DNA from: an uncultured Clostridia bacterium
GTDB lineage: Bacteria; Bacillota; Clostridia; Oscillospirales; CAG-382
DNA: 64,000 bases
Assembly: GCA_944375955.1 (NCBI GenBank)
Contig: CALWBE010000027.1
Location: 28,227-92,226 of the forward strand
Direction: 5' to 3'
A model generated the notes under the pieces. That model saw only the letters and a list, made by a program, of their open reading frames with translations. It was not told the origin of the DNA and did no database searches. Position 1 is the first letter of the stretch; every line of letters begins with the position of its first letter. Positions 5,331-47,565 of the stretch are shown in pieces. Position numbers and translations under genes: made by a program.

Positions 5331-5359
5331 ATTTAATACTAAAGGCAAATGATGTACTA

Positions 5360-12658: not shown

Positions 12659-12738
12659 GTTTTTTCTCCTTTTTGACAAATATTTTATTGCTTCTATAAT
12701 TATTATATCTTAATATATTTTTGTTTAAATACAGAAAA

Positions 12739-19935: not shown

Positions 19936-21210
19936 CTATATCCGTGAACTTATATATTCTTTTATATTGCAGTATATCTGTGCGGCCTGAGCTCTTGTAA
20001 CATCAGCATTCGCGTCCGATACAGTGTCTCCGCTGCCTGTTCCTACAAGTATGCCGCATGATGCAAGTGACGGCGAACTTGCCGGAGATACTGCCTGAAC
20101 CGCGCCTGACGCAGAGTTTGCAGGCAATGCTAACAGTCTCGAGAGAATAGCAGCTGCCTCAGATCTTGATATAACGTCGGTGCTTTTAAAGCTGACTCCG
20201 CCGTTTCCGTCCGGATATCCGTTTATTATACCCATTTCAAGAGCTGTCTGAGCATAGCTTTTTATATTTATCGGGATTTGCGAGTCATCTGAAAAAGATG
20301 TGAAATTAACTCTGTTAACGCTGTCCTCAAGACCTGCGGCTATCATTGATATTGCCAGGAAGTCGCCTCTTGTAACGGTTTTGTCAGGGTTGAATACCAG
20401 TTTTCCGTTTCGTATTTCACCGCCGAATACTCCGTCAGAAACCGCTTTTATCGCACTGTTGTGTGCCCAGTGATTTGTCATATCGGAAAAAGTTACGTTG
20501 CTTTCCGGTTCTGTTATATGAACTGTTATTTTATAAGTGTCGGTTTTGTTTCCGTACGTGTCGCAGACACGGAAACTGAAAATATCACGTCCGGTAAAAT
20601 CAGTTTTTGGGGTGTACATGAAAAAGCCGGTATTTTTATCAAGCAGCTGTACTGTTCCGTGCTTTGCAGAGGATACGATAGAAAACGTCATTTCGTCTCC
20701 GTCAGGGTCGGAAGCTTTAAAAAAGCCTTTATATGAAATGTTTTTCTGCGTTTCAAATGAATTTTCACCTATAACCGGTGCCAAATTAAGCTTTTCGAGT
20801 ACAAACACAGTGCATACACCGTATTTGTTACTGTCTCCGGCGGCGTCGCAAAAGGTGAATGAGCTTTCACCTGTTCTTCCGGATACCGGTTCAAAACGCA
20901 TTTCATCTATACTTCTTCTTGTGACTGTTTGTCCTGCTGTTACTTCTCTTCCTGCTATGATAAGCCTTCCTACACTTTTTTCAGGCAGCGTCATAATAGT
21001 AACATAGTCCGCTTTGCCTATTACTGAGTCAAAATCTCCGGAAGAAAAATCTATCGGACTGTTTATCACCCCGCATTTTTTAACTTCGGTTTTGGATTTT
21101 ATAATTTCAAGCGCCGGTGAAAGGTCATATGCTGCCGATACCGATAAAACCGTCAGCTGCATTACAGCTATAAATGCTGCGATAAATGATATAAATTTGA
21201 TCTTCTTCAT
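19936..21210 (-). CDS. Secreted cell-surface protein with Ig/cadherin-like domain and C-terminal SLH repeats
   Basis: 424 aa. Signal peptide (MKKIKFISFIAAFIAVMQLTVLSVSAA), an Ig-like block (DPDGDEMTFSIVSSAKHGTVQLLDKNTGFFMYTP), and SLH-like repeats (FSDMTNHWAHNSAIKAV...VTRGDFLA). Confidence 0.8.
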   Translation of the reverse strand: MKKIKFISFIAAFIAVMQLTVLSVSAAYDLSPALEIIKSKTEVKKCGVINSPIDFSSGDFDSVIGKADYVTIMTLPEKSVGRLIIAGREVTAGQTVTRRSIDEMRFEPVSGRTGESSFTFCDAAGDSNKYGVCTVFVLEKLNLAPVIGENSFETQKNISYKGFFKASDPDGDEMTFSIVSSAKHGTVQLLDKNTGFFMYTPKTDFTGRDIFSFRVCDTYGNKTDTYKITVHITEPESNVTFSDMTNHWAHNSAIKAVSDGVFGGEIRNGKLVFNPDKTVTRGDFLAISMIAAGLEDSVNRVNFTSFSDDSQIPINIKSYAQTALEMGIINGYPDGNGGVSFKSTDVISRSEAAAILSRLLALPANSASGAVQAVSPASSPSLASCGILVGTGSGDTVSDANADVTRAQAAQIYCNIKEYISSRI

Positions 21211-21334
21211 AATGCAATGATCATCCCTTTCATATTAAGTTTAAAAAAATGGTTACGGTACTATTTTTTCCATATAAACGTTTTTTATGCTAAGATGTGA
21301 TATTAAAAATTATTTTGTCAGGAGAATATCTGCT

Positions 21335-33469: not shown

Positions 33470-34264
33470 TTAATTTATCATAGTTCTGTAATTTTTAGGA
33501 GAAACTCCAAAATGTTTTTTAAATACGGTTGAAAAGTAATATATGTTTTCAAATCCGCATATTTCGACAATTTCAGATATAGTGTAGTGACCTGTTATAA
33601 GAAGTTCTTTTGCCTTGTCAAGTTTTAGCATTGTGACATACTTTACAGGAGGCATACCGTATTTTTTTATAAAAATTTCTTTAAAATAATCATATGACAA
33701 AGATGATTCAGCACACATTTTTTTATAATTGAAACCGCGCTGAGTAAAGTGCTTTATCATATAATTGTAAGAAGGCAGTATTTTTTTTGCTTGAATATCA
33801 GTAAAATAACGGTTAGTGTGTTTTTTTATCTTTTTTATAATATCATAAAATATAGACATGCATTCAGAATAAAATCCTAATTCTTTGGAATTCCAAATAT
33901 TATATATTTTTGTAAAAAGCGGCTTTAATTCATTCATATTTTTTAAACTTACTGCATAATCAGGCATCTCATCAAAAGTGTCAAAGAAAATATCTATACA
34001 TAAGGATGACGCTATTTTTTCAACAGTATATTCTCCCCCGGAGATGTCTTTCGGCAAATATCTTATAGAGTTTGCCGTATCTTTTAACATGTTGCCGTTG
34101 AAACAAGTCAATAATTCACCTGAAATAAAGAAAATAAGCTCATATGCAGATAATTTTGAAGGATAGTGAATTATATTTTTAATACTGCTGTCCGTTTTCA
34201 TTTCATACATATTTACAGTATATATTTTTGAAATGTTTATTATTTCATTTTCAAACAGATACAA
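33470..34264 (-). CDS. AraC family transcriptional regulator (divergent from the glycyl-radical enzyme gene)
   Basis: 264 aa. C-terminal AraC HTH (SLSYDYFKEIFIKKYGMPPVKYVTMLKLDKAKELL...GFENIYYFSTVFKKHFGVSPKNYR). TTG start 8 nt after GGAGGTG. Confidence 0.88.
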   Translation of the reverse strand: MYLFENEIINISKIYTVNMYEMKTDSSIKNIIHYPSKLSAYELIFFISGELLTCFNGNMLKDTANSIRYLPKDISGGEYTVEKIASSLCIDIFFDTFDEMPDYAVSLKNMNELKPLFTKIYNIWNSKELGFYSECMSIFYDIIKKIKKHTNRYFTDIQAKKILPSYNYMIKHFTQRGFNYKKMCAESSLSYDYFKEIFIKKYGMPPVKYVTMLKLDKAKELLITGHYTISEIVEICGFENIYYFSTVFKKHFGVSPKNYRTMIN

Positions 34265-34419
34265 ATTATAAACACCTCCGAATTTTATTATATTAAATAT
34301 TTTCTCAAAGTCAATAAAAATCCTTATAAATTATAAAAACATTAAGTTATATATTTACATTTTATTGATAGGCAAATATAATTCATATATCATCCTTAAA
34401 GAACGGGAGAATCAGCAAA

Positions 34420-36543
34420 ATGACTGAGAGAATAAAAAAGCTTTCCGATATGACGGTAAAAGGTGAAATGTATATTGAGCATACAGAAACAAAATATGAC
34501 AGAAAAGATATTTTTTTGCCGCCTGTTATAATGAGTGCGAAAAGATCTAAGGAATATATATTGAATCAAAAGCCGTATGTCAGCGAATATACAGCTCTTA
34601 CGGGATATTTGCGTTTTAACGGTGATGTTATGGGAGATATTTTTAACCGTAACGGTCACCGGAACTATAAGATGCTGATGGATAATTTTTATAATAAACC
34701 GGTTGATGGACTGTGTACTTTTGAATGGCAGCACAGCGTTGCGGATTTTGAAAAAGTAATAAAAATAGGAATAAAAGGCTTCAAGGCGGAAATTGAAGTT
34801 TCAAGGGTAAATCATACAGATAAAGAAAAAAAGGATTTTTTGGATGCACTTGATATAATAGCTGACGCAATTATCGGATGGGCTGAAAAATGTTCTGCTG
34901 CTGCGCGCATAAAGTCATTGGAAGTTGCCTGTCCCGAATATAAAGCAAATCTTATAAAACTTTCTGATGCTCTTTGTAAAGTGCCTGCAAATCCGGCTGA
35001 AAGTTTTTACGAGGCGGTTTTAACTCTTTATTTGATATATGCTTTTGTACCTGACAGTATAGGAACTATAGACAGATATTTATATTCGTTTTATAAAAAA
35101 GATATAGAAAACGGAGTCCTTACTAAAGAGGAAGCAAAGTCATATTTGCAGGAACTTTTTTTAATGCTTCAAGCGAGAGTATCAATAAAATCAGACCGTT
35201 TTTATAGAGGAGGCGAATCCCATTTTTGTATCGGAGGCTATCTTGAAAATGGTGAGGATGGGTTTAATGAGCTGTCAAGGCTTATTCTTGACAGTCTGCT
35301 TGAGCTTCCCACATGGATCCCGCAGATTTCTCTGCGCTGGACGAAAAAAACTCCCGAGGACGTTTTAAAATATGTTATGGACTGTGAAAGAAAGGATCCC
35401 AATAAAAGAATAGCTTTTGTTAATGACGAACCGAGAATAAAAGCGTTTATGGAGATAGGCGGTTTTCCATATGAGCTTGCCTGTAAATATACTATGGTAG
35501 GGTGTAACGAACCTCAGCTTCCAGGTGGGATTTTTATGGGCGGATGCTATGCGAATATAGCAAAATCAATAGAAAATACTCTTTATAACTGCGGTGACGA
35601 GATATGCGAGGCAGAAAATTTTGAGGATTTTTATAAAATTTTTGAAAGAGAATTGTATAGTACAATAAAACTTTGTACGGATTATTACAACAAATTCCAA
35701 TCTGTAAGGGCAAGAGATATAAATTTAGTAAGTACAATGTTTTTTGAGGGTTCAATAAAACGTGCTGAAAGTATAACCAGAGGCGGCGCCGAGAATGCTG
35801 TTGCTGACCTCAGTTTTATTGGAATAATAACTGTTGTCGACTCACTTTCGGTAATAAAGCAATTCGTTTATGTAGAAAAGAAAATATCAATGAAAACTCT
35901 CTTAGAGGCTCTTAGGGCAAATTGGAACGGATATGAGATTCTGCATAGTGATATACTGAAAAACGGCAGGTTTTTCGGGAATGATGACGAAATCTCAAAT
36001 TATTGCGCATATAGATTTGCATGCAGTGTGTCAGAATATTTTAAAGATAAGCGGACTGATATGGGTTATAAATTTATGATAGGCAATCTTATAGGCTACA
36101 ATCAACATCATAAATGGTTTGGAGATTATGTAAGAGCCACTCCTGACGGCAGATTAAACGGAGAAATGATATCATATGGCATAGGGCAGAATAATGGGAA
36201 AGACAGAGAGGGGCTTACGGCGCTTTTAAGCTCTGTTGCCAAGCTGAATTCACATGTGATTTTTTGCGGGGAGACTGTAACTAATGTTTTTATTGATGAA
36301 CAGCTTGTAAAGAACGATAAAAATTTTGAAAAACTTGTAAAACTGTTTGAGACATATTTTAAATTGGGAGGGCTGCATTATCAGCTGAATTATGTGTCAA
36401 AGGAGGATTTGAGAAACGCGCAGACAACGCCGGAAAAATACAGGAATTTAAGAGTGCGCGTGTCCGGTTTTTCAGATTACTTTATATTTCTCAATGAAGA
36501 TTTGCAAAACGAAATTATATCAAGGACCGAAAAGTCAATATGA
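34420..36543 (+). CDS. Glycyl radical enzyme (PFL-like fold), short form, substrate unknown
   Basis: 707 aa. The C-terminal glycyl-radical motif is RVRVSGFSDYF (Gly683). The candidate thiyl loop is TMVGCNEPQ (Cys362, Glu364). A dedicated activase gene follows. Confidence 0.85.
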   Translation: MTERIKKLSDMTVKGEMYIEHTETKYDRKDIFLPPVIMSAKRSKEYILNQKPYVSEYTALTGYLRFNGDVMGDIFNRNGHRNYKMLMDNFYNKPVDGLCTFEWQHSVADFEKVIKIGIKGFKAEIEVSRVNHTDKEKKDFLDALDIIADAIIGWAEKCSAAARIKSLEVACPEYKANLIKLSDALCKVPANPAESFYEAVLTLYLIYAFVPDSIGTIDRYLYSFYKKDIENGVLTKEEAKSYLQELFLMLQARVSIKSDRFYRGGESHFCIGGYLENGEDGFNELSRLILDSLLELPTWIPQISLRWTKKTPEDVLKYVMDCERKDPNKRIAFVNDEPRIKAFMEIGGFPYELACKYTMVGCNEPQLPGGIFMGGCYANIAKSIENTLYNCGDEICEAENFEDFYKIFERELYSTIKLCTDYYNKFQSVRARDINLVSTMFFEGSIKRAESITRGGAENAVADLSFIGIITVVDSLSVIKQFVYVEKKISMKTLLEALRANWNGYEILHSDILKNGRFFGNDDEISNYCAYRFACSVSEYFKDKRTDMGYKFMIGNLIGYNQHHKWFGDYVRATPDGRLNGEMISYGIGQNNGKDREGLTALLSSVAKLNSHVIFCGETVTNVFIDEQLVKNDKNFEKLVKLFETYFKLGGLHYQLNYVSKEDLRNAQTTPEKYRNLRVRVSGFSDYFIFLNEDLQNEIISRTEKSI

Positions 36544-36605
36544 AATAAAAAAACGGCGTTTAAATGCCGATAATTTTGTAAGTTATATATGTTAAAGGAA
36601 TAAAA

Positions 36606-37454
36606 ATGAAAGCCATAATATTTGATATTCAAAGAAGTTCTTTCGTTGACGGGCCCGGTATACGGACAACAGTATTTTTTAAGGGTTGCAATCTCAGGTG
36701 TAAATGGTGTCATAACCCGGAAAGCCAAATCATAAAACCGCAGATCATGTTTTATAAAAGCAAATGCATTTCCTGCGGGAAGTGCAGGGAAGCATGCCCG
36801 AACAACATGGAAAAATGCGACATGTGCGGAAAGTGTACATACGCTTGCCCAAACGGCGCAAGAAGAATATGCGGCAGGGAATATACTATAAGTGAAGTTT
36901 TAAAAGAGATTTTAAAGGATAAAGCATTTTATGAGACATCCGGCGGAGGAGTTACATTTTCCGGAGGAGAGTGTATGCTTCAAATAGATTTTCTGGAAGA
37001 GATTCTAAAAAAATGCAAAGAAAATAAAGTTCACACAGCAGTTGATACAGCTGGTTGTATTCCATGGGAATATTTTCTTAAAATAATGCCTTATACAAAT
37101 TTATTCCTTTATGATGTAAAATGTTTTTCTGATAAATTGCATATTTTGGGAACAAATTATTCAAATAAACTCATTCTTGAAAATCTTAAGAAGCTTTCAG
37201 ATGAATTTTTAGGAGATATAATAATAAGAATTCCGGTTATCGGAGGTTTTAATGACGATACAGCCGAAATAAGAAAGATATGCGGTTTTATAAAAAGCCT
37301 TAGAATAAAAAATACGGAGATTCTGCCGTATCATAAAATGGGAGAATATAAATATGAAGCTCTTGGCATGAAAGCTTTAAAATACAAAGTTCCGGATCCT
37401 AAAGAAATAAAGCGTTTAAAAGAAGTTTTTTGCAACATTCAACAAGGGGAATAA
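36606..37454 (+). CDS. Glycyl-radical enzyme activating protein (radical SAM, with ferredoxin-like insert)
   Basis: 282 aa. FFKGCNLRCKWCHNPE radical-SAM triad, plus two extra cluster motifs (CISCGKCREACP and CDMCGKCTYACP) and the GGVTFSGGE motif. Confidence 0.9.
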   Translation: MKAIIFDIQRSSFVDGPGIRTTVFFKGCNLRCKWCHNPESQIIKPQIMFYKSKCISCGKCREACPNNMEKCDMCGKCTYACPNGARRICGREYTISEVLKEILKDKAFYETSGGGVTFSGGECMLQIDFLEEILKKCKENKVHTAVDTAGCIPWEYFLKIMPYTNLFLYDVKCFSDKLHILGTNYSNKLILENLKKLSDEFLGDIIIRIPVIGGFNDDTAEIRKICGFIKSLRIKNTEILPYHKMGEYKYEALGMKALKYKVPDPKEIKRLKEVFCNIQQGE

Positions 37455-37468
37455 TATGATAAAACTAA

Positions 37469-37513
37469 CGGGCATGACCTGAATTTTATTCGGTTCGTGC
37501 CCGCTAATTTTAT
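37469..37513. terminator. Hairpin terminator after the activase gene
   Basis: CGGGCATGA / TCGTGCCCG (9 bp, one G-U pair) with an inner GAAT/ATTC stem, then a T-rich tail. Confidence 0.6.
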
Positions 37514-37520
37514 ATAGTTT

Positions 37521-37853
37521 TTAATATTTTGTATTAAGGTCTTTTTCTGACGGCGCAGTGTTAAATAGCTTTTTATATGCCTTGTAAAATCCTGAATAAT
37601 CGTTAAATCCGCATTGCATAGCAGCCTGCATGGGAGGTGTCGAGTTTTTTATTTTCTGATTTGCGGCGGTAAGTTTTTTCTTCAATATATATTGATATGG
37701 TGAAATATGCAAGTTTTTTTTAAATTCGTGAGATAAATATGAGACAGAAATATGCAAATAATCTGCAACTGTGCTTATAAGAAAGGTCGTAGAATATGCA
37801 AAGTATTTGCCGGTAGGAAAACGAGGCATATCAACAAACAGAGCGCATACCAT
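37521..37853 (-). pseudogene. AraC family regulator fragment (C-terminal HTH half only)
   Basis: Only the DNA-binding half is recognisable (VADYLHISVSYLSHEFKKNLHISPYQYILKKKLTAANQKI...GFNDYSGFYKAYKKLFNTAPSE). No sensor domain is present. The upstream part of the ORF is read-through into the aldolase fragment on the other strand. Confidence 0.7.
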
Positions 37854-38232
37854 GTATAATCCTCCAGAACTTTTGAAGTATATTAAAGAAGCAAATGAAA
37901 GGATGAAAATATATGCTCAGATAGAAACAAAGCTTGGGTTTGATAATATAGATGATATACTTAATACTGAAGGTGTAGACGGTATTTTTATAGGACCTAA
38001 TGATTTGGCAGCTGATTTAAATTGCATAGGAGATAAAAATATAATTTTGTCATATCTGGAAAAGGCGGGAACAGCTGCGAAAAAAGCCGGTAAGCCTTGG
38101 GGAATAATTACTACGGATAAAGAGTTTACGGAACATTCTAAAAAATATGGATTAGGCATGATATCTTATGGCAACGAGATAAACATGCTGAAAAATGAAA
38201 GTGAAAGAATAAAGGAGATGTTACAATGGTAA
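37771..38232 (+). pseudogene. HpcH/HpaI aldolase family fragment (C-terminal about 60 percent only)
   Basis: AKYLPVGKRGIS...IYAQIETKLGFDNIDDILNTEGVDGIFIGPNDLAADL matches the central and C-terminal part of HpcH/HpaI (class II) aldolases. The roughly 100 N-terminal residues are missing, and no plausible start or RBS exists. Confidence 0.65.
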
Positions 38233-39263
38233 AAAACATAACAATAAAGCAGATATGCAGCTCCAGCTTATGCTGTGAGCCGATCTTAAGAAAAACTGCA
38301 AACGGAGATCTTCTGTGCATTTGCCAGCTTGACGGACCTTACGAACCGCATATTGAAAACAGAGTATATGCTTTTCATAGCAGCGATAACGGAGTTACAT
38401 GGTCTAACAGCGGGAAGATATATCCCGAGGATGGACAGGCGGTTTATTGCACTGAAGTATCTGTTTCTGGAAATGAAATATCGGCATATATCACTGTTCA
38501 TAGCGGCAGTTTTCTTGATTGGAAATGTTTTGTTATGAAAAGTTTTGACAATGGATATAAGTGGATAAATGCAGGTACGCCGCCATGTTTGCCCGAATAT
38601 ACATTTATTAGAGGAAGAATTGTCGCTGCAAACGGAAATATAATTATACCTTATCAGAATTATCCGGTAACAAGGGAAGAACATGACAGAATATTGCGTG
38701 AGGAGACTGATAAAGCTGTATTTGTGAATACAAAAACAGAGTACTGTGAAAGTGGAGTTATTTTGAGCTGTGACGGTGGAAAGACATATGAAAGATATCC
38801 TGCCTGTCGTATGGATATGTCAGACGGATGGATATGGTCTGAGCCGACAATTGCAGAGCTTTCTGACGGAACGATAGTAATGTTAATGAGAAAGTGCAGA
38901 AGCGGATGGCTGTGGCGGTGCGATTCATATGACGGAGGAAAAAGTTGGAGCGAATGCCGGAAGACCGATATTCCCAATCCTTCAAATAAACCCAAATTGA
39001 TTAAAATCGATGAAAAACGGATAGCTTTGCTGAATACGCCTAATAACTATGGAATGGCGGAAAACAAATCAACATGGGGGCAGAGATATCCGCTTGAGCT
39101 GTGGATAAGCGATGACGGTATGAAAACCTGGGGCAGCAAGACGGTACTTACAGATTTCCCGGGAAGTTATTCATATTCTGATGGTTTTTATGAAGACGGT
39201 CATATAAAATTCAGTATTGAACATAACAGACATACGGCACTGTTATTTGATGTTGAATTATAA
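38226..39263 (+). CDS. BNR/Asp-box repeat beta-propeller protein (sialidase-like fold), cytoplasmic
   Basis: 345 aa with no signal peptide. Five Asp-boxes: SSDNGVTW, SFDNGYKW, SCDGGKTY, SYDGGKSW, SDDGMKTW. AAGGAG RBS. It overlaps the aldolase fragment end by 7 nt. Confidence 0.8.
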   Translation: MVKNITIKQICSSSLCCEPILRKTANGDLLCICQLDGPYEPHIENRVYAFHSSDNGVTWSNSGKIYPEDGQAVYCTEVSVSGNEISAYITVHSGSFLDWKCFVMKSFDNGYKWINAGTPPCLPEYTFIRGRIVAANGNIIIPYQNYPVTREEHDRILREETDKAVFVNTKTEYCESGVILSCDGGKTYERYPACRMDMSDGWIWSEPTIAELSDGTIVMLMRKCRSGWLWRCDSYDGGKSWSECRKTDIPNPSNKPKLIKIDEKRIALLNTPNNYGMAENKSTWGQRYPLELWISDDGMKTWGSKTVLTDFPGSYSYSDGFYEDGHIKFSIEHNRHTALLFDVEL

Positions 39264-39374: not shown

Positions 39375-40274
39375 TTATTTATATTTAAACTGCTGTGAAG
39401 CATATCCGCAAGAGCGGCAAAGAGCCTCACATTCTTTTTTGCCTTGAAAAGAGCTTATGATATCCAATGCGCGCTTTGATGAAAGTATTTTTTCAAGATC
39501 ATTTTCGAAGATATTACCTAAAGACATGACTCCGTCGGCGTCAAGACAACAAGGAACGACTGTACCGTCGCACAGTATTCCTATCTGATCTCTGATTGCA
39601 TAACAAAAAGTAGGACCGGCATTAAATTTGCCGGTGTTTTTTTGATTTGGCCACTTAAATTTTTTTCCGAATTCAAGATACACTTCTTTTTCCCCGAGCG
39701 GGGCATTAAAAAGCTTAAAACCGGAACGGTTTTTAATCCAGCCATCAGGGAAAAGCATATGAAGCTTTTCAAGAAAAATATCATTTTTTTTATCTTTATC
39801 TTCTTCTATGTTCCACAATCGTAAAACGCATATTACGTTTGTATCTGAACACTTTTTCGCAAAGTCCGCTGCGTTTTTAATATATTTTTCAAATTTTTCT
39901 CCGGTTATCTGAGAGGGAGCGGATTCTATAATATCTGCTGCCTGAAGCGAGATGCTTACTTTTTTTATATCTCCTGTTTTGTATATAAAATCTCCTTTTT
40001 CCTGCAATAAAGTCCCATTTGTTGTAAGCATAACCTCAAATCCGCAAAGACGCGCAGCATGAGCCATTTCTGGCAAGGCTTCATTAAGCAGAGGTTCGCC
40101 CATGAGATGAAGATATAAATATTTTGCCTTACCCTTTATTTTGCCGAGTATAGTTAAAAACTCCGCATATGTCATAAAGCGTTTTTCACGGCTTGTCCCA
40201 TGGCAGAAAGAACACGAAAGGTTGCATACGTTATTTGTCTCAAGATATATTTTTGTAAGTTGGTTTTTATTCAT
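39375..40274 (-). CDS. Radical SAM protein with C-terminal Cys-rich SPASM/twitch-like domain
   Basis: 299 aa. YLETNNVCNLSCSFCHG radical-SAM triad. The C-terminal cysteines are CYAIRDQIGILCDGTVVPCC...ECEALCRSCGY. The start codon overlaps the stop of the upstream PduB-like gene (ATGA). Confidence 0.82.
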   Translation of the reverse strand: MNKNQLTKIYLETNNVCNLSCSFCHGTSREKRFMTYAEFLTILGKIKGKAKYLYLHLMGEPLLNEALPEMAHAARLCGFEVMLTTNGTLLQEKGDFIYKTGDIKKVSISLQAADIIESAPSQITGEKFEKYIKNAADFAKKCSDTNVICVLRLWNIEEDKDKKNDIFLEKLHMLFPDGWIKNRSGFKLFNAPLGEKEVYLEFGKKFKWPNQKNTGKFNAGPTFCYAIRDQIGILCDGTVVPCCLDADGVMSLGNIFENDLEKILSSKRALDIISSFQGKKECEALCRSCGYASQQFKYK

Positions 40275-40987
40275 TTTATATATGACGTACCCGGAGATTT
40301 TGGTATGCTTCCAAGTGCCGTTAGCATTTCCATACCGATTCTGCGGGCTGAGATTACAGCTTCTTTTACACTGTCAGTTTCTCCTGCAAATGCAATTATA
40401 ACTTCATTTGAAAAGCTTGTGCCGTTTTTAGGAGACATATATTTTAAAAGTTTTACCGGAAATTCTTTCATAATACGGTCAGCAAGTACAAAACCTATTG
40501 CGGCAGGGGAAGCGGCGGCAAAGCCGAAAGCTTTATTTTCGGGAGCGCCAAATGCTTTTTTTAATGCTTGTCCGGCACTGGATGAAAAAGCAAATTCAAG
40601 ATGACCGGCATCGCTTATATATACTTCTCCGGCATTTTTCTCGGTGAGCTGCAAAGAAATTTCAACCGCGCGCCGAGTATCGGAAACCGTTTCTCCGCCT
40701 ATTACTATAAAATTTCCATGACCGCCCCAGCCTTTGGTATCGCGTGGAAGTTCTATAGATATTATTTCTGTGTCAGTTGACTTTACAGCTTCATCTGCGG
40801 CAATTATCTGCCCTGCAGCGCCTGTTCGTGAGGAAATAAGTCCGACCGCCGAAATATTTTCGGGTATACCGGCAGCTTTTTTAAGTTCACTTTCAACAGA
40901 GGGAATAATAAGACCGATCGTATCAAGAAGTGTAACGCCGACAAATTCGGGCTGAGAGCATTTGCCGAAAAGCGTTTCGTCAATCAT
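40271..40987 (-). CDS. PduB/EutL-type tandem-BMC-domain (BMC-T) shell protein homologue, orphan
   Basis: 238 aa. It is collinear with PduB as I remember it: EFVGVTLLDTIGLII, LISSRTGAAGQIIAADEAVKSTDTEIISIELPRDTKGWGGHG, AGHLEFAF, KAFGAP, GTSFSNEVII, SARRIG...LGS.PK...SYI. GGAGGG RBS. Confidence 0.8.
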   Translation of the reverse strand: MIDETLFGKCSQPEFVGVTLLDTIGLIIPSVESELKKAAGIPENISAVGLISSRTGAAGQIIAADEAVKSTDTEIISIELPRDTKGWGGHGNFIVIGGETVSDTRRAVEISLQLTEKNAGEVYISDAGHLEFAFSSSAGQALKKAFGAPENKAFGFAAASPAAIGFVLADRIMKEFPVKLLKYMSPKNGTSFSNEVIIAFAGETDSVKEAVISARRIGMEMLTALGSIPKSPGTSYIK

Positions 40988-41057
40988 TTTAATTCCCTCC
41001 GTTAAAGAAAATTATCTTATTAAGTATACCATAAAACTGTCATTTTGTAAAGATGTG

Positions 41058-42059
41058 TTATCTCATTCCTATAGAAGCAAGATATTCATCCATTCTTTTA
41101 TTTGAACCGGAAGGATCGCTGAAACGATAATCTTTAGGAAGATTAGACAGTTCGTAAGAAAGACCTTCCTTTAGGGTCTTAAAATTTTCTTGCTTCAAAC
41201 CGGCTACATCAAGAATTTTTGAATTGTCTATAATTCGGTTAAACAATCTGTCATATTCAAGTTGCCATACAGTATGCATATTTCCGGGCATTATTATATC
41301 AGTATATATTTTTTTATCTGTAAAAATATATTTCAATCCTATGATCTCTGAATAATATTCAGCAATTTCTCGCCAGCTGTGATGCTCTGAAGTTGAAAAT
41401 GTAAAACTTTCACAGTATGCGCGAGGATTTAAAATTATGCCTGCAAACATTTTGGCGACATCTCCTGCCCATGTCATTGTGCCCTGTATATCGGCAGCTT
41501 CTTTAGGAAGCACTACGGTTTTTCCTTCGCGTGCACGGTTTATAACGCACGGCGCCTCAAGTGTTACAAGCTGATAGCGCTTTTTTGAATAAGTTATTGC
41601 GGGACGTACAATAGTCCAATTTTTATATTCTGAGTTTTTAAGAATATCTTCACCGCGGGCTTTGTAAAGAGCATAATCCTCTGTAGCAAGAAATTCACGG
41701 TCGTTTGAAACGTCTAAAAGACGAGGAGAATTTTCGGTTATAGGATAATTCCCGGCATATATGCGGTATGATGACAGATAGATATAGTGCTGTGTAGATT
41801 CAAGAAATATTTTGTACCTTTCGCGGAATTCTTCAGTACTATAAATGAGAAAGTCAATAATTGCATCATATTTTTCATCAAGTATTTTTTTCAGCGTGTC
41901 AATATTTTTCATATCCGCTTTTATATATTTTGGATTGTCTGATGTTGCATCAACATCATCAAGAGAGGGGACAACGACAGAATAACCGCGGTTTACAAGT
42001 TCGGGAACGACATAAACTCCCATGGCGCCGGTACCGCCGATGACAAGAACTTTTTTCAT
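41058..42059 (-). CDS. NAD(P)-dependent epimerase/dehydratase-type (extended SDR/NmrA-like) protein
   Basis: Rossmann motif KKVLVIGGTGAMGVYVV. Start set to ATG 42059 (AAGGTG 9 nt upstream) rather than the GTG at 42071, which lies inside that RBS. Confidence 0.75.
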   Translation of the reverse strand: MKKVLVIGGTGAMGVYVVPELVNRGYSVVVPSLDDVDATSDNPKYIKADMKNIDTLKKILDEKYDAIIDFLIYSTEEFRERYKIFLESTQHYIYLSSYRIYAGNYPITENSPRLLDVSNDREFLATEDYALYKARGEDILKNSEYKNWTIVRPAITYSKKRYQLVTLEAPCVINRAREGKTVVLPKEAADIQGTMTWAGDVAKMFAGIILNPRAYCESFTFSTSEHHSWREIAEYYSEIIGLKYIFTDKKIYTDIIMPGNMHTVWQLEYDRLFNRIIDNSKILDVAGLKQENFKTLKEGLSYELSNLPKDYRFSDPSGSNKRMDEYLASIGMR

Positions 42060-42234
42060 GTTATTATTCACCTTTCATAAAATATTAAATAGTTTATTTC
42101 AAATATTCGCGGGATCGACGAAAGTATATCATTTAAAAATAAATAAGTAAAGTATTTTAGACAAATAAAAACGTTTATTATAAAAAATAATCGTTTATTG
42201 TAAATATATTATAGATTTTTAAAAGAAAAAAGTT

Positions 42235-42996
42235 TTAACTTAAACTTTCATTTTTAAATTTACCGGGCGTATATCCGGTTTCTTTTTTAAAACGATTAGA
42301 AAAATATTTTTGATCTGAAAATCCGCACATATAAGCGACTTCGGAAACAGTGTAGTATCCGGAGCGCAAAAGGTCGCATGCACGTGAAATTCGAAGTTTT
42401 GAAATATATTTTGACGGGCTTATATTAAAATGGCTCTTAAATATACGCCTGAAATAAACCTCGCTTACATTTGAAGCGTCAGCAGCATCTTTAATACGGA
42501 AAAAGGTATCGGCGAAATTTTCTTTTATAAGTTCAGTCCCTTTTAGTATGTTTTTGGGTATTTCAGACATGTTGTCATCATATGCTGATGTCAAATAGAG
42601 AATCTTATAAAAAACAGAAAGAGCTTGAGTGCGGTATCCGCATTCTTTTTTTTCCCAAATATCGAATAATTTTAAAAACAGACCGTCAAATAGTATTTTA
42701 TCATTGCAGTTAAGAAGTTTAATACCGTCAGTTTTTCTGCCGCCGACTGTATCAAAATGAACGGCTATTATTTCATCATAATTTGTTTCCTGAGAGTATT
42801 TTGTGTTGTTTCCTATAAGAACAGCAGAATGTTCCCTAACTGTAAACTTGTTATTTTTGTATTCAAATATTGTATTTCCCCTAAGTCTGTACCCAACGCA
42901 TAAAAAGCCTCTTGGCTCTGTTGAAAATTTTGATTTTTCACGTTTTGCTTTAAATACGCCTTTTATTATGATTGGTTCACCGTCTTCAAGTATCAT
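42235..42996 (-). CDS. AraC family transcriptional regulator (divergent from the GH13 gene)
   Basis: C-terminal AraC HTH (NVSEVYFRRIFKSHFNISPSKYISKLRISRACDLL...GFSDQKYFSNRFKKETGYTPGKF). Start set to ATG 42996 (AAGGTG RBS). Confidence 0.85.
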   Translation of the reverse strand: MILEDGEPIIIKGVFKAKREKSKFSTEPRGFLCVGYRLRGNTIFEYKNNKFTVREHSAVLIGNNTKYSQETNYDEIIAVHFDTVGGRKTDGIKLLNCNDKILFDGLFLKLFDIWEKKECGYRTQALSVFYKILYLTSAYDDNMSEIPKNILKGTELIKENFADTFFRIKDAADASNVSEVYFRRIFKSHFNISPSKYISKLRISRACDLLRSGYYTVSEVAYMCGFSDQKYFSNRFKKETGYTPGKFKNESLS

Positions 42997-43196
42997 TTTT
43001 TCACCTTTTAACAAAGTATAAAAATTCAAAATATATAAAAGTCTTTAGTTTATAGAATTTTAGCATACGAAATTATGGGTGTCAAGTTTCGGTTTTTAAA
43101 CTTTTTGTATCAAAATAAGGGTTGATTCAGCGGATTTAGGTTGTTATTATAATTTTGTGAAGAATATTAAAAGAAAAAAATGGAGAGATTTTCTGT

Positions 43197-44771: not shown

Positions 44772-45440
44772 TTAAAAAAATACGCCTTTTGCTTGTTCTT
44801 TAATATCCTGCGAAGTTGCAAACGGAATTCGAGTGGTATATCCGTTTTTGGCTGCCACGATCTTTTTTGTCGGCCATGCAAAAATGTCTTTGTTCCATTC
44901 GGTTATTGTATCGTTATAAAGTTCTCGTGCAGCTGTGATTTCTCTTTGAAGATACATGTTTTGCTGCATTGCATCTGCAATTTCGGCGTGAGCTTTTAAA
45001 TCAGGATAATTTTCAACCGCAACATTTATGTCTCTTGAAACTGTTTCAATCTTGTCGCCGATTTCATTTCGTGCTGTGTCAGAATCAGCATTATTTCCCG
45101 ATCTGTATTTTGCTATATTTTCGAGTGTGCTTTTATCAAGGTCTATCGCCTTGTCCAAAAGACGGGCGCAGTTTTGCAGAACCATTACTCTTTGTTCAAG
45201 ATAGTTGTCTATCTGAGAAGCATTTCTCTGTATTTTTTGCTGCAGCTGATCAAAGTGTTTTTGAGCGTTAATTTTCATAAAAAGAAATATAACCCCTGGA
45301 AAAATTCCTAATACCCATAAGATTATTTGAAATAAAGTTGAGCCAAATCCTACTTCAGCAGGTATCTTTTTAACGATTACATTTGTTTCCAAGCCTTCTT
45401 CTCTGACCTCGGGATTAAGCTCGTCTAATTGATTAGCCAT
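44772..45440 (-). CDS. lemA: LemA family membrane protein
   Basis: 222 aa. One N-proximal TM helix, then the LemA helical body (...RVMVLQNCARLLDKA..., ELYNDTITEWNKDIFAWPTKKIVAAKNGY). Strong AAGGAG RBS. Confidence 0.85.
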   Translation of the reverse strand: MANQLDELNPEVREEGLETNVIVKKIPAEVGFGSTLFQIILWVLGIFPGVIFLFMKINAQKHFDQLQQKIQRNASQIDNYLEQRVMVLQNCARLLDKAIDLDKSTLENIAKYRSGNNADSDTARNEIGDKIETVSRDINVAVENYPDLKAHAEIADAMQQNMYLQREITAARELYNDTITEWNKDIFAWPTKKIVAAKNGYTTRIPFATSQDIKEQAKGVFF

Positions 45441-45467: not shown

Positions 45468-47075
45468 TTACTTAAACAAACACAAGCCGTTTCTTGTTGC
45501 GATAATATCTTTATCTTTAACGGAACCTGAATCTGCAACAAAAAAATTGCTGCTTGATTTTAGAGGTACATATTCATCCCAGCTAACAGACACATTGTGA
45601 TAGCGTCCGTCTCCTCCAAGTACCGAAACGATATCGATCTGAGGAACAATATCATATGTATAAGCGGTAACGCATATTTCCTCGGCGTTATCTTTTGATT
45701 TTATAAAGCGCGACTTTAAAATCGCTTTAGTTTTTGTGCCGGAATGTACCATATATTCGCTGTCTGCAGCGTTAGCCAATGCCTCGCATTCTTTTTGTGA
45801 ATATTTCTGAGTCATATCGGGAATAGGATTAAGGGAATTAACAGGCCTTTCCTGATATATCGGTATTGCTAAAATAGGTGCGAAGTCAAAATATACAGCT
45901 TTAAAAAATTCGGTGTTCTTATTTATAAAATTTTCTTTTATAATATCAAAAGAATAAGAAATATAATCATCCGGCTCTAAATTTATTTTTCTTCCCTGGC
46001 TGTGGTTTGATATTATCTTATTCATGCGTTTAGTTTTTATAAAGCTGAAATCGTCACCGTATCCCGTATCCGACAGTATAAGATCAACCATATTTGTTTG
46101 AGCGAGAGGTGTAAATAAGGTTCTGTATTGTACTTCATCTGTTCTGTCAAGGGCGTCGAACAGTACTTCAAAATCGGAATTTGACATGCTCATAAAGTCG
46201 TCGTTTTGACTTATAGCTTCATCTGTCATTTTTTTCAGCTTTTTTTCGCCTTTCTTAACATACTTTTCGATTTGCTTATCATTTTTCAAATGAAGCAGCG
46301 AGGCGTCGCGGCTGAATGACAAATCAGGACCTCCCTGTGAGCCATAGTTTAAAACGACCTGATTTGTATAAAAAGGTTTAGGTTTTATAACTGAGGCATG
46401 CAAAGTTTGTGTTCTTGTCCGTCTGCGCCTTTTTCCGTCGGCATCTATATATGTTTCTGACCAGTGAATTGTTTTATAGCCGTGATAGGTTTCCGTTCCC
46501 ATGGTGTGAATGAGTTTGTTTTCGAAAACAAACGGATTTTCATTGTATTTTCCAGCAAGTACTTCTTGAGTTGTCTGCTGATCTTTATCCGGTTCGCAGA
46601 AATCAAAGTTTGTTATCATATCTGTTTCCTGCTTTGCGGAAAAACACGGTTCGAATGACAGTTGCGGAATAGTTGTTTCTATAATTTTTAAAGCGTCGCG
46701 GCATGTAAAAAGCCTGTTAAGAGGCAGCATTTGAGCTTGAGCCTCTTTTAAAAAAATTTCTGATTCTTGTTCGTTCTTTTCTATTTGATTTTTTAAATCG
46801 CGTATTTTAGGAGTTATTTTTAATATTACTACTGGTATAAGCAAAATTGTGATTATCATTAAAACTCTTATAATCTTAAAAAATGTCAGTTTTTTTCTAA
46901 TTTTTCTTAGGTTATCATTACAATTTATATAATTTTTTACGGTTTCATGGTTTTGATCTATATTTATACCTGATTGTTTTACAAGATTGTCAAAAAAACT
47001 GTTTGTGTTGTCTAAGTGCAAAGCTTTCAGGCTTTTTTCGTATTCTTCTAACGGGTTATAAATTACAGAATTCAC
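45468..47075 (-). CDS. Hypothetical membrane-anchored protein (535 aa), operon partner of LemA
   Basis: GTG start after AAAGGGGG. It has about 75 cytoplasmic residues, one TM helix (FFKIIRVLMIITILLIPVVILKI) and a short coiled coil, followed by a roughly 400-aa domain that I cannot assign. It ends 27 nt before lemA. Confidence 0.65.
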   Translation of the reverse strand: MNSVIYNPLEEYEKSLKALHLDNTNSFFDNLVKQSGINIDQNHETVKNYINCNDNLRKIRKKLTFFKIIRVLMIITILLIPVVILKITPKIRDLKNQIEKNEQESEIFLKEAQAQMLPLNRLFTCRDALKIIETTIPQLSFEPCFSAKQETDMITNFDFCEPDKDQQTTQEVLAGKYNENPFVFENKLIHTMGTETYHGYKTIHWSETYIDADGKRRRRTRTQTLHASVIKPKPFYTNQVVLNYGSQGGPDLSFSRDASLLHLKNDKQIEKYVKKGEKKLKKMTDEAISQNDDFMSMSNSDFEVLFDALDRTDEVQYRTLFTPLAQTNMVDLILSDTGYGDDFSFIKTKRMNKIISNHSQGRKINLEPDDYISYSFDIIKENFINKNTEFFKAVYFDFAPILAIPIYQERPVNSLNPIPDMTQKYSQKECEALANAADSEYMVHSGTKTKAILKSRFIKSKDNAEEICVTAYTYDIVPQIDIVSVLGGDGRYHNVSVSWDEYVPLKSSSNFFVADSGSVKDKDIIATRNGLCLFK

Positions 47076-47275
47076 GTTTTATCCCCCTTTTCTGATAGTA
47101 TATCATAAAATATTTGCTTTGTAAATAGTAAAAGGATAATGATAAAAGACATAAATTTGAATAAAAAAACTGACCATACACAATGATCGGTTTATTATTT
47201 TTATATAAGATGTAGATATAAACCGGAATTAAAATAAAATAAGCTTGGTGCAAAATTTTACACCAAGCTATGTTG

Positions 47276-47353
47276 TGGGGTGAGTAAAGAGATTCGAACC
47301 CTCGACCTTCAGGGCCACAACCTGACGCTCTAACCAGCTGAGCTATACCCACC
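47276..47353 (-). tRNA. tRNA-His (GTG)
   Basis: Hand-folded cloverleaf with anticodon loop TTGTGGC. There is an extra 5' G(-1) pairing with C73, as is typical of tRNA-His. CCA is encoded. Confidence 0.9.
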
Positions 47354-47397
47354 GTATATAAAAAAATTTCGCACGTGTGGCTGAATAACGGCGAAAA

Positions 47398-47474
47398 TGG
47401 CGTGCCTTGAGGGACTCGAACCCCCGACCTACTGCTTAGAAGGCAGTTGCTCTATCCAGCTGAGCTAAAAGCAC
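47398..47474 (-). tRNA. tRNA-Arg (TCT)
   Basis: Cloverleaf: acceptor GTGCTTT/AAGGCAC, anticodon stem ACTGC/GCAGT, loop CTTCTAA, T-arm GGGGG-TTCGAGT-CCCTC. CCA is encoded. Confidence 0.9.
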
Positions 47475-47491
47475 ATAGCCAAAGATAAAAA

Positions 47492-47565
47492 TGGAGCGGG
47501 TGATGGGAATCGAACCCACGCAATCAGCTTGGAAGGCTGAGATTCTACCATTGAACTACACCCGC
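47492..47565 (-). tRNA. tRNA-Gly (TCC)
   Basis: Cloverleaf: acceptor GCGGGTG/CACCCGC, anticodon stem TCAGC/GCTGA, loop CTTCCAA, T-loop TTCGATT. CCA is encoded. Confidence 0.9.

Follow-up and report, generated by a model that had tools for sequence, protein, structure and literature searches.

The stretch of DNA analyzed here (the window, 64 kb) carries a gene for a PduB'-type microcompartment shell tile, directly followed by the gene of a small radical-SAM enzyme. The shell gene is part of a large clade of stand-alone PduB genes that is widespread among gut Clostridia. Its arrangement with the enzyme gene is a lineage-specific operon, not a general shell-plus-enzyme module. The shell gene being of a common, catalogued class and the enzyme pairing being limited to one narrow lineage, the locus does not constitute a new system. 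Taken as a whole, the explanation as a satellite PduB' tile in a lineage-specific operon with a radical-SAM enzyme of the "twitch" type has, in our judgment, a slightly better than even chance of being right. The features concerned are the following.

39375 to 40274, minus strand: gene of the small radical-SAM enzyme, 299 aa (PF04055, PF13186, conserved cysteines, AF2 model)
40271 to 40274, minus strand: ATGA stop/start overlap of the two genes (junctions of seven paired loci compared)
40271 to 40987, minus strand: PduB'-type tandem-BMC shell-tile gene (BMC-T, permuted single-trimer type), 238 aa (Pfam, NCBIfam, PDB, fold)
40995 to 41000, minus strand: consensus Shine-Dalgarno sequence GGAGGG for the PduB-like gene (sequence)
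41023 to 41051, minus strand: sigma-70-type promoter-like site upstream of the PduB-like gene, TTTACA-17-TATACT with extended TG (consensus-pattern prediction)
34420 to 37454, opposite strand to the pair: glycyl-radical enzyme and activase (Pfam, NCBIfam)
36606 to 37454: the true activase of the window (TIGR02494, 333 bits)

Identity of the shell tile and its surroundings

By profile, sequence and predicted fold, the 238-aa protein is a true PduB/EtuB-type tandem-BMC trimer protein. The preliminary description had reckoned with the possibility that profile searches would not confirm BMC domains; this did not occur, the Pfam BMC profile PF00936 being found in two stretches of the protein (E 2.5e-19). 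The NCBIfam PduB profile NF011944 gave 294.8 bits (cut-off 173) and TIGR04501 (microcomp_PduB) gave 312.4 bits, a marginal pass at a cut-off of 310. The nearest solved relatives were EtuB (3io0, E 2e-62) and PduB of L. reuteri (4fay, E 4e-56), and all sequence blocks that had been listed for the proposed collinearity with PduB could be aligned to EtuB and PduB. The AlphaFold (AF2) model (pLDDT 91, with loop 81-90 as the single low-confidence stretch) superimposed on 4i61, 3io0 and 4fay with TM scores of 0.90-0.95 and an rmsd of 1.4-1.6 Å, whereas a TM score of only about 0.7 was obtained with EutL structures. The NF011944 match covered profile positions 41-269 only, and the N-terminal extension is therefore missing, as had been noted before; this extension tethers the enzyme core in full-length PduB, and the window protein corresponds to the short PduB' form.

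Residues K69 and K174, both in D-x-x-x-K motifs, were invariant in 32 diverse clade members. They correspond, at a constant offset of 33 in profile coordinates, to K102 and K207 of Salmonella PduB, edge lysines that are required for shell incorporation. Clade-specific is Trp87 in the glycine-rich loop PRDTKGWGGHG: the tryptophan was present in 85 of 85 clade members and is missing in EtuB and in L. reuteri PduB. By homology to EutL and PduB, we regard this loop as the one that gates the pore. Values of dN/dS of about 0.05-0.15 pointed to strong purifying selection on the tile gene, the ratios being rough owing to saturation at synonymous sites (dS above 1.5, or undefined). Inspection by eye revealed neither cysteine ligands nor a recognizable modification motif in the tile. 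An anSME-type C/S-x-P-x-R motif was not found by eye either, and the tile was for this reason dropped as a candidate protein substrate of the anSME type.

Searches of the 64-kb window brought up neither a second shell gene nor a core enzyme of a metabolosome, which bears out the earlier statement that BMC-H, BMC-P and aldehyde dehydrogenase are absent from it. A six-frame phmmer scan of the window with PduA, EutM, EutN and PduN queries (approximate sequences) gave no match; the BMC-H queries found both Pfam-confirmed BMC-H genes of locus L077 as a positive control, the BMC-P queries having no such control. In Pfam searches covering most of the not already identified open reading frames of the window, large and small, PF00936, PF03319, aldehyde dehydrogenase and PduL were not found elsewhere. 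Past the right end of the window, about 8.5 kb of same-species contig held only a ribosomal-protein operon and, past the left end, about 1.4 kb held only one uncharacterized upstream gene. A satellite shell locus has been defined by shell protein(s) that do not include both BMC-H and BMC-P and by the absence of core metabolosome enzymes (Axen 2014; Sutter 2021), and on gene content the 64-kb locus, with its lone shell gene and no BMC-P or core enzyme detected, corresponds to this definition.

The radical-SAM enzyme and its pairing with the tile gene

The 299-aa protein was recognized by the two profiles that had been suggested for it, Radical_SAM PF04055 (E 2.3e-13) and SPASM PF13186 (E 4.8e-13). 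It carries the motif CNLSCSFC, and the corresponding CX3CX2C cysteines C17, C21 and C24 were conserved in 98% of 120 homologues. The only invariant cysteines of the tail were C224, C242, C243, C286 and C289, with C235 at 80%, and C224, C242, C286 and C289 align with the C-terminal cysteines of BtrN. The tail had been described as Cys-rich and SPASM- or twitch-like. Here the twitch part stood, with the pattern CX12GX4C...CX2C, the one-cluster twitch pattern of BtrN, but the SPASM part did not: the enzyme departs from the seven-Cys motif CX9-15GX4C ... CX2CX5CX3C ... C, and its CX2CX5CX3C block was not found in the protein despite the PF13186 match. Judged by these cysteines, the protein looks like a BtrN-type twitch enzyme and not like a full SPASM enzyme. 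The folds nearest to its AF2 model (pLDDT 89.7) were those of SuiB, BtrN, BlsE, DesII, AbmM, anSME and SpeY, and BtrN gave the best target-normalized TM score (0.69-0.73; 0.58 when normalized to the query). Among the best 25 of 47 NCBIfam matches, none of the named radical-SAM equivalogs (MoaA, PqqE, anSME-like, sactipeptide maturases and others) came near its cut-off, the top match being TIGR04317 with 63 bits against a cut-off of 380, and the glycyl-radical activase profile TIGR02494 was not among these 25. The enzyme is no glycyl-radical activase; its substrate is probably a small molecule, for instance a sugar or a cyclitol. The search for its family returned at least 8000 candidates, compared with 2864 matches for the PduB-like protein, and the family appears more widespread than the PduB clade. 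With thousands of members, no named relative and a common occurrence in gut Clostridia, it may merit a study of its own.

The adjacency of the two genes does recur in other genomes, the question on which a neighborhood survey had been proposed, but only within one narrow lineage. It was seen directly in seven loci, with three more inferred, and these paired loci form one monophyletic Oscillospiraceae-like sublineage in the PduB tree and share the same radical-SAM clade. Within this sublineage the pair persists through at least four different flanking contexts, at divergences with saturated synonymous sites. Outside it, the two families are mostly found apart. The PduB gene was a lone gene in 76 of 80 loci and was followed by a radical-SAM gene in four; conversely, a PduB-like gene was found at none of 80 metagenome radical-SAM loci, 51 of these having at least 900 nt of upstream sequence. 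Radical-SAM orthologues also stand alone in L003, L004 and L090, and the subclade formed by L092, L172 and L173, nested among the paired radical-SAM proteins at 51-55% identity, occurs alone in three different contexts. Linkage of the two genes at a distance in a sister lineage was ruled out, L090 having no PduB-like gene. As the pairing is confined to one lineage and the families are mostly apart, we therefore describe it as a lineage-specific operon arrangement. That no module of a PduB-like protein with a radical-SAM enzyme has been described, as had been surmised, agrees with its absence from the two microcompartment catalogue papers and from full-text literature searches; searches on orphan BMC-T genes, on R. 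bromii microcompartments and on "microcompartment protein PduB" in omics data likewise yielded nothing relevant.

At the junction of the two genes, the window differs from its relatives. In six of the seven paired loci the genes are 45-60 nt apart, and this spacer contains a terminator-like hairpin and the enzyme gene's own ribosome-binding site; the window junction lacks the hairpin, the spacer and the Shine-Dalgarno sequence, and no terminator was called between its two genes. Since a hairpin separates the genes in six of seven loci, the ATGA overlap is, as far as these junctions tell, a derived state peculiar to the species of the window. The overlap itself was confirmed, but the co-translation and functional pairing that had been deduced from it do not follow for the other six loci. 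Upstream of the tile gene, the promoter-like site has counterparts in L002, L010 and L013 (TTTACA-17-TAnAnT+TG, 27-46 nt before the PduB-like start) and in L012 (TTGATT-17-TATACT+TG), and 32% of the upstream regions of the PduB clade scored at least 10/12 for a promoter versus 3% of control windows. The GGAGGG sequence was kept in all six assessable paired loci. The radical-SAM genes of the paired loci have only weak AAGG/GAGG sites, and that of the window has none. All statements on promoters, terminators and read-through are consensus-pattern predictions. As a spacer of 45-60 nt is too short to accommodate a second promoter, the enzyme gene probably depends on the promoter of the tile.

These data bear directly on the possibility of a true functional pair, in which the trimer would be scaffold, gated substrate conduit or protein substrate of the radical-SAM enzyme, with much tile and little enzyme being made. 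We regard such a pair as unlikely. The persistence of the pair over at least four flanks together with the missing room for a promoter fits selection for co-expression, and some functional link is possible; the adjacency in seven of seven directly observed lineage members (with the three inferred ones), the agreement of both gene trees in grouping the paired members and the tightening of the link to an ATGA overlap in the window point in the same direction. Weighed against this are the 76 of 80 PduB loci without the enzyme gene and the 80 metagenome radical-SAM loci without a PduB-like gene, the nested orthologues that do without a PduB neighbor, the hairpin that stands between the genes in six of seven loci, a radical-SAM family that seems commoner than the PduB clade, and a tile in which neither cysteine ligands nor a modification motif could be recognized by eye.

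The stand-alone PduB clade and its proposed satellite status

In species-representative genomes, 299 PduB-like loci were confirmed, 80 of which were kept for neighborhood examination. BMC-H was found nearby in L077 alone, the remaining 79 loci having no other shell gene within 10 kb. The 80 loci revealed no universal neighbor and no substrate-responsive regulator as a recurrent neighbor, the surroundings being housekeeping genes. L077 was considered as a main locus that would tie the PduB with the loop tryptophan (W-type) to a metabolosome and turned out to be another enzyme-less shell cluster. Mean column identity amounted to 77% over 32 clade members from several Clostridia groups, and the paired sublineage shares only 57-64% identity with Lachnospiraceae members of the clade. 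In the window, L001 and L012 the pair has ytfI/ytfJ in its vicinity, and lone PduB genes were seen near spoVG in eight loci and close to cell-wall hydrolases in L077. A link to sporulation was discarded, the neighbors being inconsistent, the promoters of sigma-70 type and the literature search empty.

In the BMC-Tsp tree of the microcompartment catalogue, the group Tsp_chartreuse3 comprises PduB proteins of 237-238 aa from Blautia, Ruminococcus and Clostridium-type Firmicutes and has the PduB of GRM5 main loci as its sister group; its labels all read "(sat)", with seven of eight representatives assigned to GRM5, GRM5-like or PDU1D_GRM5 and one to "incomplete" (Sutter et al. 2021, PMC8217296). 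The window protein resembles this group in length, annotation and host taxa, on which it was matched rather than by direct sequence comparison, and the genera of the group also dominate the 80 examined loci. For the shell gene, two alternatives had been put forward, recruitment of a BMC-T fold to a role outside shells or satellite status with respect to a distant microcompartment locus. As a classification, the latter is favored by the clade of lone PduB genes and by the catalogue label: the word "satellite" is no more than a name unless a main microcompartment locus with BMC-H and BMC-P is present in the same genome, and one catalogue representative is already "incomplete".

It is rather unlikely, in our view, that the whole W-type lone-PduB clade has a role free of microcompartments, for example as a constitutive sheet- or trimer-forming housekeeping protein, the satellite label then being a co-occurrence artifact in Lachnospiraceae that happen to have GRM5 loci. 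Such a role would suit the housekeeping surroundings of the 79 loci with no second shell gene, the sigma-70-type promoters and consensus ribosome-binding site with no recurrent regulator, the strong conservation, a loop tryptophan that is general in the clade and missing in EtuB and L. reuteri PduB, the "incomplete" representative and the single-gene satellites of A. woodii, which were not found in purified microcompartments. However, main GRM5 or PDU loci are present in the source genomes of seven of the eight catalogue representatives, the sister group of the clade is formed by PduB from GRM5 main loci, the two lysines required for tiling into a shell are invariant, and no carrier was shown among genomes known to lack BMC-H and BMC-P. 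A combined form of these readings, in which the invariant-Trp lone PduB' would be an independent, strongly expressed protein of roughly 300 Clostridia species (for example a constitutive gated trimer or sheet), encoded among housekeeping genes and recruited in the lineage of the window as scaffold, substrate conduit or protein substrate of the twitch enzyme, appears improbable. If it were true, the Trp-clade protein and the twitch enzyme would be the first case of a microcompartment-fold protein working with a radical enzyme outside microcompartments.

Finally, the tile might serve the glycyl-radical enzyme encoded at a distance of 3 kb, the two forming a glycyl-radical microcompartment in minimal or degenerate form. 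The glycyl-radical locus to which the preliminary description had drawn attention is indeed present, as enzyme and activase, and a decayed segment separates it from the pair, but the two locations are not kept together in related loci. Neither L001 nor L002, the two related paired loci with long flanks, has the island beside the pair, and the gene order differs: in L001 the PduB-like gene comes immediately after YtfJ, but in the window the island intervenes between YtfJ and the pair, on the opposite strand and with decayed gene fragments on the side of the pair. Of the parts that make up a GRM locus (glycyl-radical enzyme, activase, BMC-H, BMC-P, aldehyde dehydrogenase and phosphotransacylase), only the first two were found in the window, and PduL was likewise missing. 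The enzyme has only 707 aa, and compared with the family profiles its N-terminus is short, so that there would be no room for an encapsulation peptide. Although the GRM5 loci, which are the catalogue partners of the clade, are glycyl-radical microcompartments, this reading is largely refuted by the lack of conservation and must be considered very improbable.

Preferred explanation and comparison with known systems

According to the preferred explanation, that of a satellite PduB' tile in a lineage-specific operon with a twitch radical-SAM enzyme, the 238-aa tile would be a trimeric pseudo-hexamer of the permuted tandem-BMC fold that has kept its edge lysines and lacks the cargo tether. Stand-alone genes of the PduB clade are predicted to have their own sigma-70-type promoter, a strong ribosome-binding site and often a terminator after the gene. 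The tile would most likely be made independently of any microcompartment operon and would, again most likely, either become part of a GRM5/PDU-type microcompartment whose genes lie elsewhere in the genome or change its permeability. The twitch radical-SAM gene, of a normally stand-alone family, would have come to adjoin the PduB gene in one Oscillospiraceae-like lineage. Its transcription there probably relies on the polymerase reading through a leaky terminator, which would yield much tile and little enzyme. In the species of the window, comparison with the other junctions suggests that roughly 35 nt were deleted, and with them the hairpin and the ribosome-binding site of the enzyme, so that translation would restart at the ATGA overlap.

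If this explanation holds, the locus adds one more member and a lineage-specific operon variant to the satellite shell genes, which are listed by the microcompartment catalogues and never discussed there. The survey indicates that the satellite PduB' clade is large (299 species-level loci), strongly conserved and furnished with its own promoter and ribosome-binding site and often a terminator. A conserved clade with predicted expression signals of its own and a tryptophan in the presumed pore-gating loop is a reasonable candidate for a permeability-tuning tile that is independent of the main operon. For carboxysomes, permeability tuning by the satellites CcmK3/K4 is an existing proposal. The finding would gain much in importance only if the carrier genomes had no microcompartments at all.

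With PduB/PduB' of Salmonella and L. reuteri (4FAY, 4I61), the window protein shares the permuted tandem-BMC trimer fold at about 41-46% identity, the length of the short PduB' form and the lysines equivalent to K102 and K207. It differs from PduB in that its gene lies outside any pdu operon, the N-terminal cargo tether is missing, tryptophan replaces glycine in the PRDTKG-G/W-GGHG loop and TIGR04501 is passed only marginally. EtuB of Clostridium kluyveri (3IO0) is the best sequence match among solved structures and gives the best rmsd (1.4 Å). EtuB belongs to a small locus that is not known to include a pentamer gene, with the BMC-H gene EtuA and ethanol-utilization enzymes as its neighbors; the window gene, unlike EtuB, has no shell or metabolosome neighbor, and EtuB has glycine at the position of Trp87. 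From the Tsp_chartreuse3 entries the window gene is set apart by its radical-SAM neighbor, which the catalogue nowhere mentions (PMC8217296). Acetobacterium woodii has single-gene satellites (EutL Awo_c19100 and PduU genes) beside a proven main pdu locus, and these are poorly expressed and absent from purified microcompartments (PMC7593272). The window gene is similarly a lone BMC-domain gene with no microcompartment-related neighbors, but its clade has strong predicted expression signals and is of the PduB and not the EutL type.

The glycyl-radical enzyme activases of GRM loci (PflA/CutD type) are also radical-SAM enzymes in microcompartment loci, and the partner enzyme of the tile is of a different type. 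Closer to it are the twitch enzymes BtrN (4M7T), SpeY (7WZX), BlsE (7VOB), AbmM (8WM2) and DesII (8HZV), which are of similar size and, like it, have no peptide-recognition domain; unlike these, it stands outside any aminoglycoside or nucleoside antibiotic gene context. Its sequence similarity to BtrN is marginal (E 3.7e-4) and it has an additional invariant cysteine, Cys243, but it shares with BtrN the CX3CX2C motif and the C-terminal CX12GX4C...CX2C, the single-auxiliary-cluster pattern of that enzyme.

The PduB-type shell protein and the radical-SAM enzyme

The two genes considered here, together called the pair, are:
40271-40987, minus strand: PduB-type shell protein ORF, 238 aa (the tile), identified by Pfam, NCBIfam and PDB matches and by predicted fold
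39375-40274, minus strand: radical-SAM ORF, 299 aa, with PF04055, PF13186 and a CNLSCSFC motif

By all tests applied, the product of 40271-40987 is a PduB-type shell protein. The Pfam BMC profile (PF00936) matched it in two stretches (E 2.5e-19). In NCBIfam it scored 294.8 bits against a cut-off of 173 for NF011944 and 312.4 bits, barely over the cut-off of 310, for TIGR04501 (microcomp_PduB). By sequence, the nearest solved structures were EtuB of C. kluyveri (3io0, E 2e-62) and PduB of L. reuteri (4fay, E 4e-56), with which every block cited for PduB collinearity in the preliminary description could be aligned. The AlphaFold model (pLDDT 91) superposed on 4i61, 3io0 and 4fay with TM 0.90-0.95 and rmsd 1.4-1.6 Å, as compared to a TM of only ~0.7 for EutL structures. 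Since the Salmonella-type profile is matched only from position 41 onwards, the tile lacks the N-terminal segment, as had been claimed, and is a short PduB' form. It thus differs from full-length PduB in the absence of the segment that tethers the enzyme core according to Lehman 2017, as cited in PMC7593272, and to Kennedy 2021.

Mean column identity was 77% in 32 members of the tile clade from several Clostridia groups, with dN/dS of ~0.05-0.15 at saturated synonymous sites. Both D-x-x-x-K edge motifs are present in the tile, and their lysines, K69 and K174, are invariant in the 32 members and correspond at a constant offset of 33 to Salmonella K102 and K207, mutation of which keeps PduB out of the shell. 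This argues that the tiling surface is under selection. A Gly-rich loop reads PRDTKGWGGHG in 84 of 85 aligned clade members and PRDTKSWGGHG in the other one. Its Trp87 is clade-specific, EtuB and L. reuteri PduB having Gly at this position. The loop, residues 81-90, is the sole low-confidence part of the model (mean pLDDT 59); its homology with EutL and PduB suggests that it is the central gating loop.

The radical-SAM assignment held in the profile search, with both PF04055 and PF13186 matching, and no NCBIfam family came near its cut-off among the best 25 of 47 matches. Conserved cysteines in 120 homologues are C17/C21/C24, C224, C242, C243, C286 and C289; C235 (80%) and C282 (42%) are less conserved. 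Conservation of C224, C242, C286 and C289 gives a tail pattern CX12GX4C...CX2C, which phmmer aligned to the C-terminal cysteines of BtrN. Judged by its cysteines, the tail matches the single-auxiliary-cluster twitch pattern; of the SPASM/twitch-like tail first described, the PF13186 match and the one-cluster pattern stand, but not a full seven-Cys SPASM motif. Structure matches of the enzyme model (pLDDT 89.7) were twitch or SPASM enzymes only, BtrN having the best target-normalised TM (0.69-0.73). Those of similar size without a peptide-recognition domain were mostly sugar, cyclitol and nucleoside modifiers (BlsE, DesII, AbmM, SpeY), with the peptide epimerase EpeE also among them, and the model thus suggests a putative small-molecule oxidoreductase or lyase.

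Recurrence of the pair and the gene junction

A survey of GTDB representatives, one genome per species, with the PduB-like clade alignment gave 299 confirmed loci. In the best 80 of these, the radical-SAM gene was directly downstream of the tile in four only (L010-L013; tile 74-77% identical), the other 76 carrying a lone PduB-like gene. A 238-aa BMC gene also lies directly upstream of the radical-SAM gene in two other loci, L001 (enzyme 61% identical) and L002 (49%), and is not next to it in L003 (48%) and L004 (46%). Together with the window these are seven paired loci, which form a single clade when tile sequences are compared by neighbour joining; from contigs of identical length in the tile and enzyme match lists, we infer three further pairs.

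Genes flanking the pair
Window: upstream, epimerase; downstream, BNR protein
L001: upstream, YtfJ; downstream, HTH protein
L002: upstream, BipA; downstream, ABC ATPase
L013: upstream, pseudouridine synthase; downstream, unknown ORF, then alanine racemase
L012: upstream, contig end; downstream, YtfJ, inverted

At least four different flanking contexts indicate that the pair moved or survived as a unit. The radical-SAM family itself is very large, with at least 8000 candidates at E <= 1e-10 and 555 relatives found when metagenomes were searched with its alignment, and neither a PduB-like nor any other BMC gene accompanied the best 80 of these 555 (38-55% identity; upstream sequence of at least 900 nt for 51 of the 80). 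One clade of the enzyme tree (P0001-P0038) contains all paired members, and a subclade nested in it lacked the pair in 3/3 examined loci (L092, L172, L173), each in a different context. In the simplest history, the adjacency would have been gained once, kept in many descendants and lost at least once, with the enzyme persisting alone in that sublineage. The adjacency thus does recur, but in one narrow monophyletic lineage and not as a general module. That tile and enzyme are a true functional pair would fit their persistence as a unit; given the enzymes that persist alone, we consider it unlikely.

At the junction, the tile stop and the radical-SAM start overlap as ATGA in the window, as first described, but this is not the rule for the pair, the other six loci having a spacer with a hairpin. 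In L001 and L010, L011, L012 and L013, 45-50 nt follow the PduB-like stop codon, with a GC-rich hairpin (dG -11.5 to -14 kcal/mol), a T run, a weak AAGG/GAGG ribosome-binding site and then ATG. The database gene call of the L002 enzyme overlaps the tile stop; its family-aligned start (MSKLFSKIYFE) lies ~60 nt past that stop, 3' of a similar hairpin. In the window, only 12 nt separate the tile stop from the conserved LTKIYLE codons, and the junction has neither hairpin nor Shine-Dalgarno for the radical-SAM gene, which suggests that a ~35-nt deletion in this species created the overlap. In L001 and L013, no promoter-like site was seen in the intergenic spacer or the 3' portion of the tile gene, which points to an ancestral two-gene operon. 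It would have had an internal leaky terminator, yielding much tile and little enzyme, in place of which the window species may use termination-reinitiation coupling. The hairpin is almost identical in sequence (AAACGGATC...GATCCGTTT and T run) at L001 9952-9981 and at equivalent positions in L011 and L012, although the proteins of these three species-level genomes share only ~75% identity. Conserved beyond expectation, it may be more than a terminator, for example an element of mRNA stabilisation or attenuation.

Predicted expression signals in the wider clade are strong. Sigma-70-type sites scoring at least 10/12 occur in 32% of clade upstream regions vs 3% of control windows, consistently ~32 nt from the start. 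TTTACA-17-TAnAnT with extended TG precedes the tile in the window, L002, L010 and L013, and TTGATT-17-TATACT with TG in L012. The tile Shine-Dalgarno in paired loci is the consensus GGAGGG, and a strong hairpin terminator lies within 70 nt downstream in 30 of 77 clade loci. No universal neighbour was found for the lone genes in the best 80 of 299 loci; the commonest (SDR 16, HflX 13, MATE transporter 13, ParA 11, GyrB 8, SpoVG 8) are lineage synteny among housekeeping genes. BMC-H genes were nearby in one of these 80 loci only, L077. A microcompartment-independent role of the whole clade would suit such isolation; set beside the selected tiling surface, it seems to us unlikely too, slightly more so than the functional pair. 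L077 (Hespellia sp. MAG, 2039-6090) is a shell-only satellite cluster without metabolosome enzyme, in the order W-type PduB-like gene, Amidase_3 gene, BMC-H 3601-3873(-) and 3894-4193(-), surrounded by cell-wall genes (GH18+SH3, NlpC/P60) and MecA.

Surroundings of the pair in the window

The claimed absence of further shell genes or an aldehyde dehydrogenase in the 64 kb was upheld by Pfam and six-frame searches. PduA, EutM, EutN and PduN query sequences gave no match in the six-frame translation of the window; the BMC-H queries recovered both Pfam-confirmed BMC-H genes of L077, and the BMC-P queries were run without a control. BMC, EutN domain, aldehyde dehydrogenase and PduL were absent by Pfam from most remaining called ORFs, large and small. 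The window is otherwise unremarkable chromosomal DNA of an uncultured Oscillospiraceae/Ruminococcaceae bacterium; its gene content includes V-ATPase, alanine racemase, PNPase, S15, ytfI/ytfJ, gyrA, PEPCK, ProRS and the S10 ribosomal operon. Past the right end, a same-species contig continues with ribosomal-protein genes only; past the left, ~1.4 kb of a same-species contig brings in one uncharacterised upstream gene.

A glycyl-radical island (33470-39263) comprises:
33470-34264, minus strand: divergent AraC regulator
34420-36543, plus strand: glycyl-radical enzyme, 707 aa, PFL-like and Gly_radical domains, GCNEP and RVSGF motifs
36606-37454, plus strand: glycyl-radical activase (TIGR02494, 333 bits)
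37521-37853, minus strand: AraC fragment, 110 aa, C-terminal HTH only
37771-38232, plus strand: HpcH/HpaI aldolase C-terminal fragment, 153 aa, profile positions 99-213 of 221
38226-39263, plus strand: intact BNR_2 sialidase-like gene

The glycyl-radical enzyme is far under every NCBIfam equivalog cut-off (best HpsG, 306 vs 1000), and relative to the family profiles it lacks ~80-100 aa at the N-terminus. The two truncated fragments (37521-38232) overlap and are probably pseudogene remnants, in agreement with the decayed segment noted near the pair. The suggested tie of the tile to this locus could not be maintained: in the syntenic L001 the island is absent and the PduB-like gene directly follows YtfJ, whereas in the window YtfJ and the pair are separated by the island, which is thus an insertion unrelated to the pair. 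The radical-SAM enzyme of the pair was rejected as glycyl-radical activase, this role belonging to the separate activase gene.

Four AraC-family genes, one a fragment, occur in the window (12721-14181, 33470-34264, 37521-37853, 42235-43029). Immediately upstream of the PduB-like gene, and in the same orientation, are the last of these and an NAD-epimerase gene (41058-42071); in other genomes neither is conserved beside the pair. A B12-binding radical-SAM protein with DUF4080 (21287-23071, 594 aa) has the same relative position in L001. A 1316-aa protein with Metallophos as only recognised domain (8729-12679) and a 424-aa protein with SLH, Big_9 and cadherin-like domains (19936-21210) are probably cell-surface proteins. 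The minus strand carries a tRNA-His, tRNA-Arg, tRNA-Gly cluster at 47276-47565; the mechanical ORF 47056-47352 reads through tRNA-His and was discarded as an artefact. A 535-aa ORF without Pfam match (45468-47075) adjoins a LemA-family gene (44772-45440).

Relation to catalogued satellite shell genes

Satellite loci are defined as encoding only part of a shell, at a distance from a main locus (Axen 2014; Sutter 2021, PMC8217296). In the supplementary BMC-Tsp tree of Sutter 2021, a 237-238-aa PduB clade from Blautia, Ruminococcus and Clostridium, Tsp_chartreuse3, has all its leaves marked '(sat)' (3 GRM5, 3 GRM5-like, 1 PDU1D_GRM5, 1 'incomplete'); PduB proteins from GRM5 main loci make up most of its sister chartreuse4 (241-242 aa; PMC8217296). 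The same genera dominate our 80 screened loci, so that the lone-PduB phenomenon was already catalogued, though without discussion. By description, namely length, annotation and host genera, the window tile may belong to Tsp_chartreuse3. The catalogue text makes no mention of radical SAM. In A. woodii, the single-gene satellite EutL and PduU genes are poorly expressed and their products absent from purified microcompartments (PMC7593272), so that 'satellite' does not guarantee shell incorporation. The observation in the preliminary description was confirmed and its interpretation supported in part. On balance we lean towards a satellite PduB'-type shell tile with a lineage-specific, loosely coupled twitch radical-SAM neighbour; on this reading the pairing would be a lineage-specific operon variant.
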